Shown piece after piece: positions 3,171 to 59,754 of a DNA stretch of 64,000 nt. The translations under genes and the position numbers were made by a program. Location of the stretch: contig CATZLO010000001.1 of NCBI GenBank assembly GCA_958421325.1, positions 7,373 to 71,372 on the forward strand, given 5' to 3'. The stretch is from an uncultured Bacilli bacterium. Lineage in GTDB: Bacteria > Bacillota_I > Bacilli_A > RF39 > UBA660. Positions within the stretch are counted from its first letter, which is position 1. Each line of letters starts with the position of its first letter. The notes under the pieces were generated by a model. The model made no database searches. It was not told the origin of the DNA and worked only from the letters and a program-made list of their open reading frames with translations.

Positions 3171-3524
3171 TTGATGAATAATAATTTTGATACTTATCCT
3201 AATCAAAGTACTGATCCACCTTATCAAAACTTTGATTATGATTATACACCTAATTTAAATAATATTCCTAATAATAATACTGTTCCTATAAGTGGAGATA
3301 TGGCTTATGCTGAAAATATTTTAGAATTAAATATAGGTAAAGAGGCAAGTTTTTATATGTCATATTCTGATTCGTTGGAATGGCGTGATAGAGTATTTAC
3401 AGGAACTATTGTCGCTGCTGGTAGGGACTATGCGGTTGTTAGAGATAGTAACAACCATAATTTCTTACTTTGGACAGTTTACCTTAATTATGTTGAGTTT
3501 AGAGAAGATATTATTTTAAGATAA
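3171..3524 (+). CDS. GerQ/YwdL-like spore-coat-protein-domain protein
   Basis: N/Q/Y/P-rich N-terminus; C-terminus ENILELNIGKEASFYMSY...VFTGTIVAAGRDYAVVRD...LLWTVYLNYVEF matches the conserved GerQ C-terminal domain. Confidence 0.5.
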   Translation: MMNNNFDTYPNQSTDPPYQNFDYDYTPNLNNIPNNNTVPISGDMAYAENILELNIGKEASFYMSYSDSLEWRDRVFTGTIVAAGRDYAVVRDSNNHNFLLWTVYLNYVEFREDIILR

Positions 3525-5413: not shown

Positions 5414-6076
5414 TTAATCTATTTTCCAATCTATTGGTTTTAGGCCTTTAGAGATTAAGAAGTTATTAGTCTTAGAGAATGGCTTACTACCAAAGAACCC
5501 ATTGTAGGCAGATAAAGGTGAAGGATGAGCTGACTCTACTATATAGTGATTTTTATTAGTTATTAGTTTCTTTTTGTTTCTAGCAAAAGAACCCCAAAGA
5601 ATAAAGACTACTGGCTCTTCTTTTTTATCTAATAATTCTATTATTTTATCAGTAAATATTTCCCAACCTTTATCTTTATGAGATGCTGCCATATTCGCCT
5701 CTACTGTTAAGACAGTATTTAGAAGTAATACTCCTTGGTCTGCCCAGGGAATAAGACTACTTGTTTTAGGAAAAGGTATTCCTAAGTCATCATTTAACTC
5801 TTTAAAGATATTTTGTAATGAGGGGGGCTTTCTAATACCATTTTTAACAGAGAAAGATAGTCCTTCTGCCTGATGTTCTCCATGATATGGATCTTGTCCT
5901 AATATTACTACTTTAACATCTTTATATGGAGTATGTCTTAAGGCATTAAACATCTCATTTTTGGGTGGGTAAATAGTCTTTTCTTTATATTCCTTATTAA
6001 CAAAATCTATTAATTTTTTAAAATAGTCTTTATTATATTCTTCTTCTAAATAAATATCCCAATCATTTCCAATCAT
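5414..6076 (-). CDS. ung: uracil-DNA glycosylase
   Basis: GQDPYHG motif and overall UNG family similarity; start set at MIGNDWD with RBS AGGAGG (ATG complement 6074-6076). Confidence 0.9.
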   Translation of the reverse strand: MIGNDWDIYLEEEYNKDYFKKLIDFVNKEYKEKTIYPPKNEMFNALRHTPYKDVKVVILGQDPYHGEHQAEGLSFSVKNGIRKPPSLQNIFKELNDDLGIPFPKTSSLIPWADQGVLLLNTVLTVEANMAASHKDKGWEIFTDKIIELLDKKEEPVVFILWGSFARNKKKLITNKNHYIVESAHPSPLSAYNGFFGSKPFSKTNNFLISKGLKPIDWKID

Positions 6077-6542: not shown

Positions 6543-7305
6543 ATATTACCTCTATTTCTTCTAAAGCCTCATTTTGTTTGGCTACCACTATTTTTATGTC
6601 ATCTCTATCTTTTAAGGCTTCTTTTGTTGTATTATAAGCGATTTCTTCTTTGTTATTATGTTCACTTAAATGAGCAAGTATTATGTATTTAGTTTCATCT
6701 CCTACTAATTTTTTTAGATATTTTGAAGTTGTCTCATTTGAAAGGTGCCCCTCATCACTAAGGATTCTTTGTTTTAAATAATATGGATATGGGCCATCCA
6801 TTAACATTTTCTCATCATGATTACTCTCTATATAATAAATATTTTTATTTTCAAGTAATGGGAAATACTTACGATTTAAATAACCTGTATCTGTTATATA
6901 AACTAGAGATTTTTTATTTTCAGTTACTAAGAAACCAACGGATCCTTTAGCATCATGACTTGTTTTAAAAACCGTTATTTCTGTACTATTATTTAAGGAT
7001 ATTAATTGATTATATATTTCTACTCTATCATTATCAATACCTACTGTTAATTCTTTTATAATATCTTTATTAGCATAAATCTTAAATTTTGTATGTTTCA
7101 ATAATACTTTAAGCCCATTAGTATGATCGTTATGAGCATGAGTTAATAGTAAGGCATCTATATCATCTATTGTTAATTTCATCTTCTCTAATTCTTTTTT
7201 TAATCTTTGGAATGTAATTCCTATATCAATAAGAAAGCGAGTGGATTTTGTTTCAATTAATGAACAGTTTCCTTTAGATCCACTCGCTAGTACTTTTATT
7301 TTCAT
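6517..7305 (-). CDS. MBL-fold metallo-hydrolase (YycJ/WalJ-like)
   Basis: HAHNDH metal-binding motif, 262 aa; B. subtilis places walJ (yycJ) upstream of rlmH (yydA). Confidence 0.8.
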   Translation of the reverse strand: MKIKVLASGSKGNCSLIETKSTRFLIDIGITFQRLKKELEKMKLTIDDIDALLLTHAHNDHTNGLKVLLKHTKFKIYANKDIIKELTVGIDNDRVEIYNQLISLNNSTEITVFKTSHDAKGSVGFLVTENKKSLVYITDTGYLNRKYFPLLENKNIYYIESNHDEKMLMDGPYPYYLKQRILSDEGHLSNETTSKYLKKLVGDETKYIILAHLSEHNNKEEIAYNTTKEALKDRDDIKIVVAKQNEALEEIEVIYDKVNMCR

Positions 7306-8822
7306 TAGAATAACCTCATTGGATTTAGTGATGATGATCCTCGGCTATATGGATATCCTCTCCACAATCCAAAGTGAAGATGAACTCCTGTTGCTGCTCC
7401 TGTTCTACCCATTGCTCCTATAGTATCACCCTGGGAAACTTCTTGTCCTACACTTACATATCTTTCTGATAAGTGAGCATACATAGTATAATAACCGTTA
7501 TTGTGATTTATTACTACATACTCTCCATTATCATATTTATAAGTTGAGGCGACTACTATACCATTATTAGAAGCGTAAATTGGTGAGCCAAAACCTGCTC
7601 CTGCAATATCCATACCATCATGTAAAACTCCCCAGCGATATCCATAAGAACTACTTACATAATATGGGGTTCTAGTTGGCCATAACCAGTATCCTTCTAC
7701 TTTAGTGTTACCACTTAAACTACTATTAACACCTCCTGAACCGCCTCTTTGTTTAGTGCCTTTTACTATTATTCTTTTAACTGGTTCCTTTAATACTCTA
7801 GTAGCACTATTGTCAATGACAGCACTTTCTACTTGGCCATTTACTTTCTGCACTTTTGAAGTTACTAGTTGTGAGCCTACTACACCTTCTTGAATTGTTT
7901 CCTCGTAAGTAGAATACTGTGCATTATCATATCTTGTCTCCGTTTCATAGGGAATATCTTGATTTGATACTTGATGATCTATTTCTACTAACCTAAATTG
8001 CGGTTTAATAATACTTATCGTTACATCTTGTCCTTCATATAGAAGATTATTAGCATCTGTAAATTCAGGATTTGCTATTAAAAATTCTTCATTTGATAAT
8101 TTATTATTGAAAGAAACATCACTAATTGTATCTCCACTTTGTACTGTATATTTTTGTTGTTCATCAAGAGTTCCAAATAACAGATATTTACTTAAATCAT
8201 CAACATTCTCATAAATCGTTTCATCAGATGGGATGTTTGTTTCCTTAATTATTACCTTATTTTCTATATAAATATTTTCTATAACTGTACCTATAGAACC
8301 ACTTTCTATTTCTTTTTGTTCGTTATTAAGGTATTTATCATAACTATCACTATCTACAAATGATCTTATAGTCCTATCCATTGCTTCTTGAAATACTTCT
8401 TTATCAAGTACATAGATAGTCCTATTAACGCCTTCTACTTTTTCACCTACTTCATTAGTAGTGTCAATGCCTTCTATAGTTATTTCATAACCCTTAATAG
8501 TAAATGGTTCTATATCTTTAATTTTATTATATATTTCTTCTGTTGTAGATATATTTTCATTATAAGTTACATCTTTTACTATTTCTAAATCTTCTGGAGC
8601 ATATACTTTGTCAGCATTATATTTGTCTTTTAAGGTTTGCTGTTCCATATCTATATATTCATCAAGGGAGTCCTTATCACTAATTAATCCTACTGATTTA
8701 CCTGCTAGATAAACACGATAAACATTTTTAGGAGTTATTGGTTCTTCTTTTGGAACTATAAATATTACTAGTAAACTTACTACTATAGAAACTACTATAG
8801 TAATTATAGCTTTTATATTCAT
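7305..8822 (-). CDS. membrane-anchored M23 family peptidoglycan metalloendopeptidase with LysM-like segment
   Basis: N-terminal TM; C-terminal M23 motifs (HDGMDIA...HLHFG); YTVQSGDTISDV LysM-like. Confidence 0.85.
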   Translation of the reverse strand: MNIKAIITIVVSIVVSLLVIFIVPKEEPITPKNVYRVYLAGKSVGLISDKDSLDEYIDMEQQTLKDKYNADKVYAPEDLEIVKDVTYNENISTTEEIYNKIKDIEPFTIKGYEITIEGIDTTNEVGEKVEGVNRTIYVLDKEVFQEAMDRTIRSFVDSDSYDKYLNNEQKEIESGSIGTVIENIYIENKVIIKETNIPSDETIYENVDDLSKYLLFGTLDEQQKYTVQSGDTISDVSFNNKLSNEEFLIANPEFTDANNLLYEGQDVTISIIKPQFRLVEIDHQVSNQDIPYETETRYDNAQYSTYEETIQEGVVGSQLVTSKVQKVNGQVESAVIDNSATRVLKEPVKRIIVKGTKQRGGSGGVNSSLSGNTKVEGYWLWPTRTPYYVSSSYGYRWGVLHDGMDIAGAGFGSPIYASNNGIVVASTYKYDNGEYVVINHNNGYYTMYAHLSERYVSVGQEVSQGDTIGAMGRTGAATGVHLHFGLWRGYPYSRGSSSLNPMRLF

Positions 8823-25095: not shown

Positions 25096-25439
25096 GTAAC
25101 ACCTTCCTTTCTCTTTTTCAATCTTATTATTATATTGATTTTTTTTGATACTGTAAAGGTTAAATAAGGAAAGTTTTTTTTATTAGTCACATTTTTACAA
25201 AAACTTGCTAATAAAAATCAATAGTTTTCAATAAATTTATCAATAATTTAATAATACTTAAATTTGAACATGCTAACGCAACCTATTACTAGGTCTTCTT
25301 TTCGCATCAAACTATAAAGATTACCATATTTCTAATTCTTTATATTTTTTTTACTATTCCATAATACATTCTCAAGAATTTATTTAATCCTGCAACTTTG
25401 GGCACTTTCTTCAGCTTGCCTTCGTTTTATTTTTTTTAT

Positions 25440-26060
25440 AATATATGATTTTAATTCGTTATCTAATTTACAATTACTTTTTATGAATTTCATTACTTCA
25501 TATCCTGTTTTTCTTAAATACTTATTTCCTCGTTTAGAAATATGTCTATTGATTGCTTCAAATTGTCCTAACTGATATGGTGATGTATCTATTCCAACAT
25601 AAGCTATAATGCTACCTGCATTTTTAAATTTTCTTACATCTCCAATTTCTGCTATTACCCTAGAAGTTAGTTTTTTTCACATCCAGAAATCTCATTTATA
25701 ACGTCATATTTAGGTATCCTCTTACAATTTTATCAATTTCTGATATAATTGTAGTTGTTGTTTTAATTGTTAAAATTAAGGAATCTGCACAACTAATTGC
25801 TGATAGGTGTGCAGATCTATTATTAGGACGTGGAGAAACCGTTTTTGGGCAAGTAAATATATCTTATTGGCTAAGGTTATGCCTGCTCCTTTATGTCCTA
25901 ATGTTTTTGCTAATTTATCAATCTCATTTATAAATTGAGATTGTTTTTCGTTTATAACAATTTCAGGATAATAATATTTTTTAAATATTTCTAGCCCTAA
26001 TATAAAAGAGTTTTCATTTAACAATTGATAATACAGCTATTGTACTTTTCCCTTTGAAAT
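25440..26060 (-). mobile_element. degraded IS110-family transposase (pseudogene remnant)
   Basis: Minus-strand fragments translate to IS110 Transposase_20-like LTSRVIAEIGDVRKFKNAGSIIAYVGIDTSPYQLGQFEAINRHISKRGNKYLRK but are broken by multiple stops and frameshifts; the 82-aa ORF 25776..26024 is part of it. Confidence 0.55.
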
Positions 26061-26318
26061 ATCAATTCCTACTCTTTAAATTATGATTGGTTACAACTCC
26101 TCTACATATCCTTATTTTAGCTCTTTACTCGAGAACTATTTCAATCTCAACTTGCTTAAACGAATATATTATGTGAAACTTGGATAACAGTTTTGTAACG
26201 AGAACTTTATCTCTAAAAGACCTACGTTATCCAATCACTTCAATCATAATAAAAAGAAGTGTAATATTCAATCACGTTTCTGCAATTAATTATTACACTT
26301 TTATAGTATCAAAAAGGT

Positions 26319-28358: not shown

Positions 28359-28564
28359 TATAACACCTCCAGACTTGAAATCTATATTATTATAATAGCT
28401 AGGTATTATCTTTGTCAAGAAATTATTTTAACTAAGGCATAGAGACACTTTATTTTGTTTTTTGCTTATTTTCTTTCATTATTATAATCTTTAAATAAAA
28501 CATATTCTATTTCTTAAAGTTCTTAGCTGTTATTTTATTATGAACATATCTAAAAAGTAGGTGT

Positions 28565-28750
28565 TATTATATTCTCCACTATTTCCACATGATGTGGAAA
28601 ACAAATATTAACTTGTGAATAAAAAAATGTGGAAAATGTGGAAAACTTTGTTTTTTGTTGATATATATTAATTTTAGTTGTGGAGAAATTTGTCGAAAAT
28701 TTGTGGAAAAAGAAAAAAATTAAAATTACTATTTCTTTTTCCACAAATTT
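28565..28750. promoter_or_regulatory. oriC DnaA-box cluster upstream of dnaA
   Basis: At least 8 close matches to TTATCCACA/TGTGGATAA (TGTGGAAAA x4, TTTCCACAT, TTCTCCACT, TTGTGGAGAA, TTTTCCACAA) within about 190 bp. Confidence 0.75.
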
Positions 28751-28797
28751 AGAGTATTATAATGGTAATTTATGAAATTCAGGTGGGAGGTGATAGG

Positions 28798-30184: not shown

Positions 30185-30295
30185 AAACTTTTTTTCCACA
30201 AGCTATGTTTAAGAAAAATATGCTAAAATATAAGGGAAAATGATAGTTTTCCACATTTTCCACTCTATAAATAAAAATATATATAAGAAAGAAGG
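30185..30295. promoter_or_regulatory. oriC downstream DnaA boxes and AT-rich unwinding element
   Basis: TTTTTCCACA, TTTTCCACA, TTTTCCACT followed by CTATAAATAAAAATATATATAAG. Confidence 0.6.
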
Positions 30296-30303
30296 AATAA
30301 ATA

Positions 30304-31431
30304 ATGAAATTTACAATAAAAAAAGAAGTGTTAATGGAAGCAATTAATAAAGTATCGAAGGCTATATCTAGTAGGAATGTGATACCTGTGCTTGCTGGTA
30401 TAAAATTTGAACTTACGAGTAAAAAATTAATTTTAACAGCTAGTGATAATGATATTACTATTCAAACTTCTATTGATTGCCACGATGAAGAGATTATAAA
30501 AGTAAAAGAGGAGGGCAGTATTATTATTCAAGGAAAGTATATTTCTGATATTGTTAGAAAATTGCCTGATCTTTATATTAATATTGAAGTAGTAGATGAA
30601 CTTAAAATACTTATCTATACAGAAAACAGTGAATTTAATTTAAATGGTATTAGTGAAAGTGAATATCCTAATATTGATTTAGGAGAAAGTAAAAGCCATA
30701 TAGAGCTTTCTTCCTGTATTTTAAAAGAAATCGTTACTCAAACTGCTTTTGCTACATCTATTGATGAAAATAAAGCGATTTTAAATGGAATTAATTTCAA
30801 TGTAACTGGGGATATATTAGAGTGTAATGCAACAGATTCTTATAGATTAGCTAGAAAAGTTATTAAATTAAATAAGTCGAGCAAAGAAAATCAAAATATC
30901 GTTATTCCTAGTCGTAATTTAGTAGAATTTACAAGAATAATTGATGATAGTGAAGAAATAGTAGAAATTCATATATTTAATAATAAGATTTTATTTAAAT
31001 ATCAGAATCTTTTATTTCAATCTAGGTTAATAAACGGTACATATCCTAATACTTCAAATTTATTACCAAAAGATCATCTTGTTAAACTTCATTTTGATAT
31101 TAATAATTTTTATGATGTTGTTGATAGAGTTAGTATTTTAACTAGTGATAAAGATAAAAATACTGTGACATTAGAAACAGATGGTAATAATTTAATTATG
31201 AAATCTTCAAGTGCTGAAATAGGTAGGGTAGAAGAGAAGATGATTATTACAAAAGATCAGGATATTGATGTTAAAGTATCCTTTAGTTCCAAATATATGA
31301 TGGATGCTTTAAAATCTTTTAATACTGAAACAGTTGAATTATATTTTGTAGGCGAAATTAAACCAATTTTATTAAAAAGTGATGAAGATGAGAGCTTAAC
31401 TCAATTGGTTTTACCTATTAGAACTTATTAA
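30304..31431 (+). CDS. dnaN: DNA polymerase III beta sliding clamp
   Basis: 375 aa, canonical DnaN. Confidence 0.95.
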   Translation: MKFTIKKEVLMEAINKVSKAISSRNVIPVLAGIKFELTSKKLILTASDNDITIQTSIDCHDEEIIKVKEEGSIIIQGKYISDIVRKLPDLYINIEVVDELKILIYTENSEFNLNGISESEYPNIDLGESKSHIELSSCILKEIVTQTAFATSIDENKAILNGINFNVTGDILECNATDSYRLARKVIKLNKSSKENQNIVIPSRNLVEFTRIIDDSEEIVEIHIFNNKILFKYQNLLFQSRLINGTYPNTSNLLPKDHLVKLHFDINNFYDVVDRVSILTSDKDKNTVTLETDGNNLIMKSSSAEIGRVEEKMIITKDQDIDVKVSFSSKYMMDALKSFNTETVELYFVGEIKPILLKSDEDESLTQLVLPIRTY

Positions 31432-31571
31432 ATTTTAAAAAAAAAGTGAAAATAGTAATAAATTTTTACTTTTTTTTTGATTTTACGACAAAAAAATAGT
31501 TTTTTCGACAATATAATATTGTAGACTGATAGCAAAGCAAGTGAATTGCTTTTGAAAGGGGATTTAGGTTT

Positions 31572-32027
31572 ATGAAAGATTATGAAATTAATGATGAGAC
31601 ATTGGCAATTATGCCAGACGATTTATGGAATTCAATGGTTCTTGAGGATGACTATAAATATGAAGTTAATAAAACTCCTCTTGAAATACTTGATTATAGC
31701 TGTAAGTATTTTGGAAGCTCTTATCCTGGAAGAAAAGATGGTTCTAAAGATATTTTAAATAGCAGTTATAAATTACCAATATTAGTGGAGGATACAAGAA
31801 ATATAATATTTTTTCCTACTAGTAGTCCACTAGATGATAGTTGTATTTGGATTTCTTTAAGTAATATTAAGGATTATAAAAAGGTTGATAAAAATAAGAC
31901 AGAAATATTATTTAAAAATAAGAAAGTTATAATTGTAGATGTTTCATATTATTCTTTTAATAATCAAGTTATGAGAGCAAGTAGATTAGAATCTATCATT
32001 AGAACTAGAAAAGAAAAAGCAAAATAA
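31572..32027 (+). CDS. comK: ComK-family protein (competence transcription factor-like)
   Basis: YEINDETLAIMP...KTPLEILDYSCKYFGSSYPGRKDG...KLPILVEDTRNIIFFPTSSP...CIWISL...YYSFNNQVMRASRL parallels B. subtilis ComK (SYEVNGATIAVLP...RSCRFFGSSYAGRKAG...ISYNSFENQVYRTAWL). Confidence 0.75.
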   Translation: MKDYEINDETLAIMPDDLWNSMVLEDDYKYEVNKTPLEILDYSCKYFGSSYPGRKDGSKDILNSSYKLPILVEDTRNIIFFPTSSPLDDSCIWISLSNIKDYKKVDKNKTEILFKNKKVIIVDVSYYSFNNQVMRASRLESIIRTRKEKAK

Positions 32028-32040
32028 TTGCTTTTTTTCT
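32014..32040 (+). terminator. hairpin + T-run at end of comK-like gene
   Basis: AAAGCAA-AATAA-TTGCTTT followed by TTTTCT. Confidence 0.4.
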
Positions 32041-32135
32041 GTTTGTTTAGGGGTAAATATGATATAATATTCTTGCGTGTATAGGAGTACTAAAATAGGG
32101 TGTAGGTGATAATATGGTCATTTTGATGAGCAAAT

Positions 32136-33251
32136 ATGATAATTAGGTCATTAAAAGTTACGAATTTTCGTAATTATGATAGATTTAATATAACTTTAGG
32201 TGGTAAGATGAATATTTTTATCGGAAATAATGCTAGTGGTAAGACAAATATTTTAGAAGCTATCGCTATATTAGGACTTACTAAATCCTTTAGAAATGGA
32301 TTAGACTGTGATGTTATTAAGTTTAATAGGAAGAAGGCAGTTATAGAAGGTAGAGTCTTAAATAATAAGCAGATTAAAGACTTAAAGTTAGAATTTTTAG
32401 AGAAAGAAAAAGATATTTATGTTAATTCTAAAAAGGTTAAAAAGTATGCAGACTACATTTCTAATTTAAATATTATTGTTTTTACACCTAATGATTTAGA
32501 TATTATAAAGGGATCACCTAGTATTAGAAGAAATTTACTTAATGTGAGTTTGTCACAAATTTCTTATTCTTATTTAGTTACTTATAATGAATATAATAAA
32601 ATTTTAAAGACACGTAATGAATATCTTAAAATACTATTTACTAATGGGATAGCTGATAAGACTTATTTAGATGTTTTAACAGATAAGTTAGTAGAGAAAG
32701 CTGTTTTAATTTATCAAGAGAGATATAAGTATTTATCTTTAATTAATAGTTATATTAGTGATATTTATAATAGTATAACAGAGGATAAAAGGACATTAAA
32801 AATACAATATAGTTCTAATATATCTATTAGTTCTTATGAGGAAAAAGAATTAATAGAAGTTTTGATTAGTACTTACAAGAAAAATTATAGAAGAGAGTTA
32901 AATGCTGGAATGACTTTATTTGGACCTCATAGAGACGATTTTTATTTTATTATGGATAATAATATTGATATGAAGATTTATGCATCACAGGGACAACAAA
33001 AATGTGCTATATTAGCTTATAAACTTGCTTCTATTCCAATATTCAAAGAAAACAATGGAACGAATCCTGTACTTCTTTTAGATGATATTTTTAGTGAACT
33101 TGATTTAGCAAAAAGAAATAAGCTTTTAAAGTATATAAGTGAAGATATTCAGAGTATTATAACAACTACTGATTTAAAAAATATTTCCAAAAAAACTTTA
33201 GATAGTGCAATTATATTTAAAGTTAATAAAGGAAAAGTTGAAAGGAGTTAG
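32136..33251 (+). CDS. recF: DNA replication/repair protein RecF
   Basis: Walker A GNNASGKTN, 371 aa. Confidence 0.95.
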   Translation: MIIRSLKVTNFRNYDRFNITLGGKMNIFIGNNASGKTNILEAIAILGLTKSFRNGLDCDVIKFNRKKAVIEGRVLNNKQIKDLKLEFLEKEKDIYVNSKKVKKYADYISNLNIIVFTPNDLDIIKGSPSIRRNLLNVSLSQISYSYLVTYNEYNKILKTRNEYLKILFTNGIADKTYLDVLTDKLVEKAVLIYQERYKYLSLINSYISDIYNSITEDKRTLKIQYSSNISISSYEEKELIEVLISTYKKNYRRELNAGMTLFGPHRDDFYFIMDNNIDMKIYASQGQQKCAILAYKLASIPIFKENNGTNPVLLLDDIFSELDLAKRNKLLKYISEDIQSIITTTDLKNISKKTLDSAIIFKVNKGKVERS

Positions 33252-38356: not shown

Positions 38357-38362
38357 TCTAAT

Positions 38363-38440
38363 GTGCAATAAATTATTTTGGAACCAGGTTAGGATGGAAA
38401 CGTAGCAGCCTTAACAATTTAATTTATGTGCACTTTTTTT
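38363..38440 (+). ncRNA. ffs: small (4.5S-type) signal recognition particle RNA with terminator
   Basis: CCAGGUUAGGAUGGAAACGUAGCAGCC matches SRP RNA domain IV consensus (E. coli CCAGGUCAGGUCCGGAAGGAAGCAGCC); 5'/3' ends GUGCAAUAAAUUA...UAAUUUAUGUGCAC pair; followed by T7 run; located just before tadA-dnaX as scr is in Bacillus. Confidence 0.6.
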
Positions 38441-38464
38441 ATACTATAAAAAGGAGTTTGATGT

Positions 38465-52096: not shown

Positions 52097-52636
52097 ATGA
52101 AGACAACAGGTGTAGTTAGAAGAGTTGATGACTTGGGAAGAATTGTAATTCCTAAAGATATTAGAAAATCTCTTAGGATTAGAGATGGTGAGAGTTTAGA
52201 ATTTTTTGTAGATAAAGAGACTATAAGCTTAAAGAAGTTTTCTACTAGTGATGTTTTAAGTGATATTGCACAGTCTTTACTTGATACTATTTATATGACT
52301 ATCAGTAAGAATATCTTTGTTACAGATAGAGATAAGTTTGTAGCAGGTACTGGTAAGTATAAAAAAGAGTTTTGTGGTTGTAATATTTCTACTAAATTAG
52401 AAGAGTGTTTATTTGAAACAGAGAGTCTAGTTAAAGGAACTTGTCAGATAGAAGAGATAGTAGATAGTAAAAACTCGGGTGAAGAGTATAAGTATATTAT
52501 TAGCCCTATACTATCAGATGGTGAGATTATTGGACTTGCTTTAATTCTTAATGAAGATGGTAAGAGTTTTACTGAAGAGGATGAACATATAATACAAATA
52601 ATTGCTAATTTCTTATCAAAATATCTTGAAGATTAA
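52097..52636 (+). CDS. spoVT: stage V sporulation protein T (AbrB-N + GAF-like)
   Basis: MKTTGVVRRVDDLGRIVIPKDIRKSLRIRDGESLEFFVD nearly identical in pattern to SpoVT N-terminus; 179 aa; follows mfd as in B. subtilis. Confidence 0.85.
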   Translation: MKTTGVVRRVDDLGRIVIPKDIRKSLRIRDGESLEFFVDKETISLKKFSTSDVLSDIAQSLLDTIYMTISKNIFVTDRDKFVAGTGKYKKEFCGCNISTKLEECLFETESLVKGTCQIEEIVDSKNSGEEYKYIISPILSDGEIIGLALILNEDGKSFTEEDEHIIQIIANFLSKYLED

Positions 52637-52649
52637 TTTCTCTTGTGTT

Positions 52650-52885
52650 AAAATAGCGTTATTAAAAGTTGTGATGAAGAGTCTTATAAATTCTAGTTAT
52701 AGAGAGTTCTTGGTAGGTGAAAAAGAAATGAGTGATTTTATAAGATATGGCTTCTGAACTTTCATATTGATATGTAAGTATGAACGTGCTAAGCGTTAAT
52801 TAGAATGAGATACAAGGTTTATTGTAAAGAAAGGTGGTACCACGGGTTAGCTCGTCCTTTTGATATGATAAATCTTTTTATTTTG
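52650..52885 (+). promoter_or_regulatory. T-box riboswitch leader (Met-specific candidate) upstream of metG
   Basis: AGAGAG AG-box, GA motif, candidate specifier AUG(A) at about 52727-52730, T-box sequence AAGGTGGTACCACGG at 52820-52834, T-run before RBS. Confidence 0.55.
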
Positions 52886-59073: not shown

Positions 59074-59754
59074 GTGGGTGATAACTTGAGAAAATTTAAT
59101 AAAGAATGGTTGGTTAAATTTAATAATATATTACACTTTATTACAACTGTTTTGATGTATTCTATTTGTTTGATAATGATTATAGTGTTTGTTGTTTTTG
59201 TTGTTAATTTTGTAGATAAACAGTATAACCTAAAAAATGGTAATAGTAAAAAAGATTTGTTTTCAGCTTATACGATAGTCAGTCCCTCTATGGTGCCAAC
59301 AATTAATGTTTTAGATGTTATTGTTACTATGCGTGTAAATAATCCTGGAGATTTAGAAAAAGGAGATATTATAACATTTAATTCTACAGATTATAGATAT
59401 ACTGGGGTTTTGGTTACGCATAGAATCGTTGATATAGAAAAGACTAGCAGTGGAGATTATTTGTTTACAACAAAGGGAGATAATAATAATACTCAAGATT
59501 CTTCTAGAATTAGTTTTAATGAAATTTATGGTAGAGTTTTATTTAGAATACCTAAAATAGGATATATTCAATATTATCTTAGTTCTATTCTTGGTTGGGT
59601 TGCTATTATTATAGTACCAGCTGTAATGATTATTGGTTATGATATATATAAATTAGTTAAAACTCTGAAATCTAATGATAAAAAAGGGGTAGGTGATAAT
59701 AAAAAATCTAAAAGGGAAAGTAATATAGAGAAGAAAGGGAGGTTTAAAAGATGA
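59074..59754 (+). CDS. sipW: SipW-type (archaeal/ER-type, S26B) signal peptidase I
   Basis: N-terminal TM, SPSMVPT (SxSMxP) catalytic Ser region, GDIITF, LVTHRIV, TKGDNNN, C-terminal TM; pattern closely parallels B. subtilis SipW. Confidence 0.75.
   Translation: MGDNLRKFNKEWLVKFNNILHFITTVLMYSICLIMIIVFVVFVVNFVDKQYNLKNGNSKKDLFSAYTIVSPSMVPTINVLDVIVTMRVNNPGDLEKGDIITFNSTDYRYTGVLVTHRIVDIEKTSSGDYLFTTKGDNNNTQDSSRISFNEIYGRVLFRIPKIGYIQYYLSSILGWVAIIIVPAVMIIGYDIYKLVKTLKSNDKKGVGDNKKSKRESNIEKKGRFKR

Follow-up and report, generated by a model that had tools for sequence, protein, structure and literature searches.

Gene order around the replication origin

The stretch of DNA analysed here, 64 kb of contig CATZLO010000001.1 from an uncultured Bacilli bacterium (hereafter the window), covers the origin of replication and its surroundings in a Bacillota member of low GC content (28.1%). 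Its genes yidC, rnpA and rpmH on the minus strand are followed by dnaA, dnaN, an open reading frame (ORF) of the ComK family, recF, gyrB and gyrA. The ComK-family gene encodes 151 amino acids (aa), with a gap of 140 nt between the end of dnaN and its ATG and of 108 nt between its end and the start of recF, and is the only ORF of at least 40 aa in the dnaN-recF gap. In Bacillus, Staphylococcus and clostridia, the position between dnaN and recF is held by the S4-domain gene yaaA (rlbA), which shares the chromosomal slot with the ComK gene of the window and has no sequence or fold relationship to it. An earlier inspection of the letters without database searches (the sequence-only reading) had placed a ComK homologue in the usual yaaA slot, and its coordinates proved exact. 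No S4-like gene is present in the gap, and none was seen in the intergenic spaces of the window, where small ORFs were judged by eye with no Pfam scan.

The ComK-family protein

The protein matched Pfam family PF06338 (ComK) with an E value of 1.8e-46 and 158.1 bits, compared with a cut-off of 22.3 bits, its residues 2-147 aligning with positions 2-151 of the 152 in the profile. In BLASTP against B. subtilis ComK (192 aa, identified as COMK_BACSU by exact look-up), residues 1-146 aligned with residues 9-157 at 38% identity and 62% positives with a single three-residue gap (E 2e-39), in agreement with the colinearity through the conserved core that the sequence-only reading had described. The gene already has the label ComK in some source annotations.

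In comparison with B. subtilis ComK, the window protein has no counterpart of residues 1-8 and 158-192 and is thus shorter by 8 residues at the N-terminus and by 35 at the C-terminus (IDHRVPKRQEFMLYPKEERTKMIYDFILRELGERY). The C-terminal loss had been recognized correctly by the sequence-only reading, and the extent given there, about 40 aa, is near the measured 35 aa. The C-terminus of the window protein corresponds approximately to residue 160 of B. subtilis ComK, in which the sequence FMLYPK begins at residue 168 and the MecA degron that it opens spans residues 168-192; this degron is absent, as are the approximately 25 C-terminal residues reported as needed for activation. The recognition signal for MecA/ClpCP resides in the tail of B. 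subtilis ComK (PMC8138137), and removal of 25 C-terminal aa from that protein abolished comGA activation while DNA binding was kept, according to the passage of PMC3128618 that cites Susanna et al. 2006.

A solved structure of any ComK relative was not detectable by sequence search. An AlphaFold2 model calculated with 46 homologues (predicted local distance difference test, pLDDT, 95; predicted template modelling score, pTM, 0.89) combines a core rich in beta structure with two short helices and, at the C-terminus, a long one (residues 126-150). The best Foldseek matches of this model in the PDB were the DNA-binding LytTR domains (AgrA, ComE, 3d6w), with probabilities of 0.96-1.0 yet weak E values of 6.5e-3 to 0.1, and a resemblance between ComK and LytTR was noted earlier in a 2026 preprint (PMC13232269). 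The ORF most likely encodes a functional short-form DNA-binding transcription factor of the ComK family that is made up of the conserved core only.

Distribution, synteny and selection

Close relatives of the protein number hundreds, nearly all of 147-157 aa, and a profile search among 1.84 billion cluster representatives retrieved 1818 ComK-family clusters, with forms of about 150 aa and about 190 aa intermixed among the best 150. As judged by these sequences, approximately 150 aa is the usual length of a large ComK subfamily, and the window protein is not a truncated copy.

Synteny was assessed in 89 distinct related loci, the gene order being judged only where flanks were present. The order dnaA-dnaN-ComK-recF-gyrB-gyrA was found in every locus with enough flank, an S4/yaaA gene in none, and tblastn with the neighbours from the window added yidC-rnpA upstream of this series in all loci with enough flank. 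The arrangement persists down to 38% ComK and 46% DnaN identity. A scan of one genome per species yielded at least 322 species with a ComK relative; the best 80 loci, which were examined, all derive from metagenome-assembled genomes (MAGs) of uncultured gut "Bacilli" or "Tenericutes", including Candidatus Onthousia, Clostridium sp. CAG:451 and a circular 1.52-Mb MAG. Identical synteny applies to a 54%-identical relative, which itself occurs in 632 metagenome blocks, and ComK is likewise located between dnaN and recF on three JGI contigs reached via the most divergent locus. The slot is also unchanged in three remoter short ComKs (38-46% identity), among them those of Candidatus Ventrenecus and of a 1.03-Mb contig, and three rounds of homologue searches reached no short ComK outside of it.

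The gap between dnaN and recF is therefore occupied by ComK as a fixed trait of a large clade of gut Bacilli, uncultured organisms with low GC and small genomes; the arrangement is old and not a local oddity. The placement, called unusual in the sequence-only reading, is indeed so with respect to model organisms, but is the rule in this lineage. In B. subtilis, comK is far from oriC. A full-text search of the literature found nothing describing the dnaN-ComK-recF arrangement; its fixation across a large clade, the missing regulatory tail and the Spo0A-type boxes in tandem described below are apparently new to the searchable literature. The origin-side position is most simply regarded as an ancient insertion retained by an extremely stable gene cluster, and a gene-dosage role of this position is possible. 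In one locus, L018 (circular MAG OZ006970.1), a 443-aa ORF on the minus strand (6634-7965), which by eye looks like an IS30-family transposase, lies between ComK and recF with both neighbours intact, indicating that the two genes are separable.

The ComK gene is under purifying selection. The ratio of nonsynonymous to synonymous substitution rates (dN/dS) is 0.07-0.23 for ComK, compared with 0.05-0.08 for dnaN and 0.13-0.20 for recF; at deep divergence, identities are 38-53% for ComK, 46-50% for DnaN and 38-45% for RecF; and 24 residues are invariant across 46 diverse ComK sequences. One might suspect that the gene is decaying, has lost its function and is carried along by a very stable cluster, given that the tail known from the model protein is missing and that no target of the protein is known. 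We give this idea next to no credence, and it is refuted by the conservation data: the gene is intact in 89 of 89 loci with a length of about 147-157 aa, it shows the selection just described, and its promoter, hairpin, Shine-Dalgarno sequence (SD) and terminator are conserved as well.

Two peculiarities of the collected sequences concern the assemblies. The MAG CAWVIV01 (metabat2_pooled_metaflye.372) has two dnaA-dnaN-ComK-recF loci, L011 and L023, with ComK proteins 90% and 74% identical to that of the window, and this bin probably mixes two species. The protein P0038 from a 1389-bp ENA contig, a 244-aa call composed of the first 77% of the window ComK (100% identical) and a Peptidase_M50 domain, probably stems from a chimeric assembly or a wrong gene call.

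Tandem boxes in the ComK promoter

The 76 unique ComK upstream regions, taken at 140 nt each, have 73 exact copies of TTCGACA on the coding strand, a 113-fold enrichment over the rest of the loci. The copies, one to four per promoter, are direct repeats in the same orientation that overlap the core promoter at about -50 to -14. With up to one mismatch allowed, 73 of the 76 regions contain at least one box and 44 at least two, and the distance between successive boxes is precisely 10 bp in 27 cases and precisely 20 bp in another 27. Boxes have been lost in, for example, L080, L082 and L085. The design recurs in more distant lineages: four boxes with a 10-bp period are present in L092 (TTTGACA-ttt-TTCGACA-aaa-TCCGACA-taa-TTCGACA), a locus with 46% ComK identity. 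The two boxes of the window, a proximal and a distal one at a distance of 20 bp (Table 1), are, DnaA boxes aside, the sole pair in the 64 kb that is phased on one strand. The sequence-only reading did not include these tandem promoter repeats.

Read on the opposite strand, TTCGACA is TGTCGAA, the core box of Spo0A in Bacillus and C. difficile (PMC3485338), and Spo0A dimers occupy two boxes 3 bp apart, which results in a 10-bp period (PMC2731898). In B. subtilis, the comK promoter has five sites that are bound directly by Spo0A~P, by which competence is gated (PMC3297582). As a positive control, low-GC spo0A loci were collected from metagenomes with an AT-codon back-translated pattern of the Spo0A recognition helix, resulting in at least 120 loci, 118 of them unique. 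The 200 nt directly upstream of these genes contain 83 exact boxes and every one of the 19 tandem 10-bp pairs (e.g., TTTTTCGACAAAATTCGACAAAA), whereas each of the remaining 100-nt bins between -2000 and +1500 has 0-5 exact boxes. Unit and spacing agree with those of the ComK promoters, and the orientation agrees in 11 of the 18 examples printed. The ComK promoters also resemble the Spo0A-controlled promoters of abrB and spo0A and the A2c promoters of phages phi29 and Nf, which have the TGTCGAA core, at least two boxes of the same orientation 3 bp apart and an overlap with the core promoter; they differ in that the boxes here are predicted, that the gene is an origin-adjacent ComK homologue, and that up to four boxes cover the interval given above.

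The repeats could instead be binding sites of the short ComK itself, which would then regulate its own gene positively or negatively. The LytTR family, whose domains are the nearest solved folds of the model, binds direct repeats, and the spo0A gene of this organism was not found either in the window or among the metagenome spo0A loci. B. subtilis ComK activates its own promoter (PMC3297582). We nevertheless hold autoregulation through these repeats to be rather improbable: the repeat exactly equals the independently defined 7-bp consensus of Spo0A including its tandem geometry of 7 + 3 bp, the spo0A genes of the 118 low-GC loci are preceded by the same array, and the known ComK site, an AAAA-N5-TTTT dyad, is quite unlike the repeat and not enriched here.

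A further possibility raised by the origin location is that the repeats are variant DnaA boxes and that the gene is regulated by DnaA. Indeed, TTTTCGACA is only one base off the DnaA box of this organism, TTTTCCACA, and across 62 loci, the clusters of DnaA boxes that precede dnaA contain 32 copies of TTCGACA. The two motifs are, however, clearly separated: TTCGACA and TTCCACA occur 73 times and once, respectively, on the coding strand upstream of ComK, but 33 and 481 times in the two oriC regions. The G was kept in 132 of 132 boxes scored, though the scan itself required G-A there, and the relaxed DnaA-box consensus TTWTNCACA needs a C at this position. Since the G variant in oriC is no commoner than the A variant, it points to ordinary degeneracy there. 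Regulation by DnaA is in our view very improbable, and the reading of the ComK-promoter repeats as DnaA boxes was rejected on the CGACA/CCACA separation and on their misfit to the TTWTCCACA of this organism. The TTCGACA copies upstream of dnaA could be origin Spo0A boxes as in B. subtilis, or ordinary degeneracy.

Clusters of DnaA boxes of the oriC type flank dnaA in the window at 28560-28760 and 30190-30265, with the local consensus TTTTCCACA / TGTGGAAAA, and a single TTTTCGACA is located among them at 28691-28697 on the minus strand. In the loci L067, L073 and L076 (at about 5890-5920), the dnaN terminator hairpin is itself made of two inverted DnaA boxes (e.g., ATCCACAATTTTTGTGGAT).

A resemblance of the repeats to the streptococcal com-box (TACGAATA) was considered and rejected, with only 6 of 8 positions matching; the presence of several phased copies also suggests a transcription factor rather than a sigma factor.

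Transcription-unit anatomy

The sequence-only reading had assigned to the ComK gene promoter-like elements and a terminator of its own, and both were found. A hairpin with a T-run, as good as which none of 200 shuffles folded, separates the gene from dnaN, and related loci have a hairpin and T-run after dnaN at the equivalent position. The -10 hexamer is perfect in the window and conserved as TATAAT, TACAAT or TATTAT in related loci, whereas neither a -35 element at a distance of 16-18 nt (CAAAAA is found there) nor a TG extension is present. The second terminator overlaps the stop codon of ComK and is conserved in close relatives. As judged by these signals, ComK is a transcription unit of its own, with a predicted 5' end of the transcript near 31524. 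A scanner for consensus promoters and terminators did not list the ComK promoter and missed both terminators, because it demands at least three G-C pairs, and was uninformative in this AT-rich DNA.

The 5'-untranslated region (UTR) of the gene contains a stem-loop shortly before a strong SD. Within the 34 nt before the SD, 93% of 59 unique loci and 30% of shuffles have a stem of 6 bp or more, with a mean minimum free energy of -6.5 versus -2.3, and this stem ends 0-8 nt before the SD in nearly all loci. The same measure upstream of recF, dnaN and gyrB gave 18-65%, near the values of their shuffles. The arms differ between clades (AAAGCAA/TTGCTTT, AAACAT/ATGTTT, GAAAAC/GTTTTC, GAAAGC/GCTTTC) while the pairing is kept, and the loops vary from 3 to 10 nt, which fits an RNA element and not a protein operator. 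An interpretation of the TGAAAAC...GTTTTCA arms as a cre site for CcpA was rejected for the same reason: loops that vary between 3 and 10 nt suit a hairpin in RNA but not an operator of 14 bp. The 7-mers AGGGGGA and GGGGGAA rank among the most enriched upstream of ComK. Rfam had no match in the ComK locus, including the recF leader.

Sporulation and competence context

The window encodes a YabG peptidase scoring above the equivalog cut-off, a full-length SpoVT-like regulator of the AbrB family and a GerQ-like protein, the latter two scoring below their cut-offs (Table 1). Together, these genes suggest that the lineage forms spores or did so until recently, even though its genome is small. A class A penicillin-binding protein is also encoded in the window. 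In related uncultured orders, some families retain spo0A and are predicted spore-formers (PMC10868615).

Several observations weigh against a Spo0A-gated competence regulator. The gene spo0A is not in the 64-kb window, none of the at least 120 metagenome spo0A loci was on the three JGI contigs with an origin-linked ComK, and other related families have lost spo0A (PMC10868615). Nor did any window protein link a metagenome spo0A locus to this organism. Taken alone, the window has one perfect and one imperfect box, and the case depends on the conserved boxes of other species; being located over the core promoter, the boxes are compatible with activation as well as with repression. No NCBIfam model matches the ComK protein of the window, and the loss of the tail might make it a poor activator, by analogy with tail-less B. 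subtilis ComK and B. cereus ComK2. Late competence genes (comG, comE, comF, dprA, ssbB) are absent from the window, in which a role in competence is without direct support. Canonical ComK boxes, defined as two AAAA-N5-TTTT motifs spaced by 8, 18 or 31 bp, are likewise no help: type I pairs with up to one mismatch do not occur in the window, and the three spacings with up to two mismatches gave 10 matches versus 6.4 in shuffles (maximum 16), i.e., chance level. One of the matches with up to two mismatches overlaps the T-run of the dnaN terminator upstream of ComK. Owing to the 28% GC of the genome the scan was uninformative, and canonical ComK boxes were discarded as evidence either way.

Some of these points bear on the question whether the protein activates competence at all. 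A tail-less repressor, or a regulator of another stationary-phase, sporulation- or replication-linked programme, would resemble ComK2. B. cereus ComK2 (BC5250) and S. aureus ComK2 belong to the ComK family and, as the window protein, have no C-terminal tail (PMC3128618); the former is 22 C-terminal aa short and lowers comG expression (PMC3128618), and the latter represses competence (PMC12491500). The DNA binding without activation of the B. subtilis deletion protein mentioned above, and the lack of late competence genes and significant ComK boxes in the 64 kb, also fit a role other than that of an activator. Each of the two ComK2 proteins is an additional copy next to a full-length ComK1 and has a negative effect on competence genes, whereas the short form is the sole ComK seen at the loci studied here and is as conserved as DnaN. 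Furthermore, it has kept the long C-terminal helix (126-150), which is modelled with confidence, another mode of activation is compatible with the data, and the absence of competence genes from a single 64-kb window says little. We therefore regard a non-activating protein as somewhat unlikely, while granting it a larger share than the other alternatives.

Comparison with B. subtilis and proposed regulation

Present knowledge of ComK stems almost wholly from B. subtilis, in which the level of the protein is set by a proteolytic switch comprising MecA, ClpCP and ComS and by a crowded promoter. The comK promoter of that species likewise has several 0A-type sites, for which direct binding of Spo0A~P is established (PMC3297582), whereas the sites here are predicted; the boxes here are perfect and in tandem, and those of B. 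subtilis comK are scattered and degenerate.

Considering all of this, we think that the window probably encodes a functional short-form ComK that is fixed between dnaN and recF, is transcribed as its own unit and is gated by Spo0A via the tandem boxes. Spo0A~P would bind the TTCGACA boxes and thereby place ComK expression under the master regulator of sporulation and stationary phase, as is the case for B. subtilis comK, with the sign of this action left to either activation or repression. Since the MecA/ClpCP degron is missing, control would be mainly transcriptional, together with an effect of the UTR hairpin as a perhaps second layer, and not proteolytic. The protein itself would bind DNA via its beta-rich, LytTR-like core, and we infer that its regulon most plausibly comprises functions of DNA uptake and recombination.

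The origin-side position might also be functional in itself. In S. pneumoniae, the origin-proximal comCDE locus increases in copy number under replication stress (PMC8394987, PMC5034851). This locus is also a master control of competence near oriC but of an unrelated type, namely a two-component system with a peptide, and a similar gene-dosage coupling for ComK is by analogy an attractive, albeit unsupported, possibility. A Spo0A-gated, degron-less ComK could in this manner couple a K-state-like programme (DNA uptake, recombination or growth arrest) to replication status and converge on the pneumococcal design, or the protein could act at oriC as a replication regulator of these reduced genomes, a version that takes note of the TTCGACA copies among the DnaA boxes. 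The chances of such a functional position appear slim to us, even slightly more so than those of autoregulation.

A large uncultured branch of gut Bacilli thus keeps a minimal ComK without the proteolytic handle, always beside the origin, and with a promoter whose motifs resemble those of a typical Spo0A target. Should the boxes prove to be genuine sites of Spo0A, the link from Spo0A to ComK would be ancient and not a peculiarity of Bacillus, and the clade would represent its simplest version. The promoter fragment, the small protein and the predicted regulator provide a concrete handle on the natural transformability of abundant unculturable gut organisms, a question that bears on horizontal gene transfer in the gut.

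Table 1. Positions of the genes and signals discussed, in coordinates of the window
Feature	Position	Strand	Details
GerQ-like protein	3171-3524		67.7 bits, below cut-off
dnaA	28762-30162
dnaN, DNA polymerase III beta clamp, upstream neighbour	30304..31431	+	375-aa ORF; Pfam DNA_pol3_beta 1-3 (on the identical gene in L001)
dnaN terminator	31435..31480	+	AT-rich hairpin and T-run; RNAfold free energy (dG) -14.6 kcal/mol, z -5.85, 0/200 shuffles as good
Distal 0A-type box	31484..31490	+	TACGACA, 1 mismatch; 20 bp upstream of the proximal box; covers the would-be -35 position
Proximal 0A-type box	31504..31510	+	TTCGACA, exact match; ends 1 nt before the -10
-10 hexamer	31512..31517	+	TATAAT, perfect; by reading the sequence
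5'-UTR stem-loop	31534..31552	+	AAAGCAA-GTGAA-TTGCTTT, 7-bp stem; ends 3 nt before the SD
Shine-Dalgarno sequence	31556..31562	+	AAGGGGA, 9 nt before the ATG
Short-form ComK-family gene	31572..32027	+	151 aa, ATG start
ComK terminator	about 32013..32041	+	hairpin AAAAAGCAA-loop-TTGCTTTTT and T-run over the stop codon; RNAfold dG -11, z -2.6
recF promoter, extended -10	32060-32068	+	TGATATAAT; part of the recF promoter/leader 32060..32135
recF-leader mini-ORF	32114-32146	+	MVILMSKYDN*; overlaps the recF start out of frame
recF, downstream neighbour	32136..33251	+	371-aa ORF; Pfam SMC_N (on the identical gene)
SpoVT-like AbrB-family regulator	52097-52636		full-length; 147.9 bits, below cut-off
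YabG peptidase	62437-63234		273.8 bits, above equivalog cut-off

Other features of the window

Within the clade, the sequence of the recF leader (..TGCGTGTATAGGAGTACTAAAATAGGGTGTAGGTGAT..ATG..) is better conserved than the proteins on either side. The leader measures 76-78 nt to the ATG in 54 of 55 unique leaders among those listed, its sequence is highly conserved in 30 aligned leaders, and the same site is present in L005-L088. It contains a perfect SD followed by a mini-ORF of 7-10 codons, whereas recF is without an SD of its own, which makes translational coupling of recF to the mini-ORF plausible; that the mini-ORF is the relic of an earlier gene is speculation. A programmed frameshift from the mini-ORF into recF was dropped as a candidate on account of the N-terminus of RecF, which we take to resemble that of normal RecF proteins.

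Elsewhere in the window, an IS110-family transposase gene (DEDD_Tnp_IS110 and Transposase_20) is located on the minus strand at 45693-46952 between pth and mfd. The 1.2 kb between the mnmE-side genes and jag (25096-26318) contain short unassigned ORFs only, with no ORF of at least 90 aa and no Rfam match. The window-wide Rfam search returned two RNAs only, a T-box leader at 52662-52862 before the methionyl-tRNA synthetase gene (104 bits) and a small signal recognition particle RNA at 38357-38442 between gyrA and tadA (49 bits). The segment 56287-60287 contains four tandem paralogues of about 200 aa that have the N-terminus KQxLLSVLGVAILVVAVVGVSFAAFSY in common and match neither Pfam nor NCBIfam. 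They are followed by a signal peptidase I of the SipW/archaeal type (59074-59754; TIGR02228, 90.8 bits) and by small membrane proteins, and the whole looks like a TasA/SipW-like cluster for secreted fibres.

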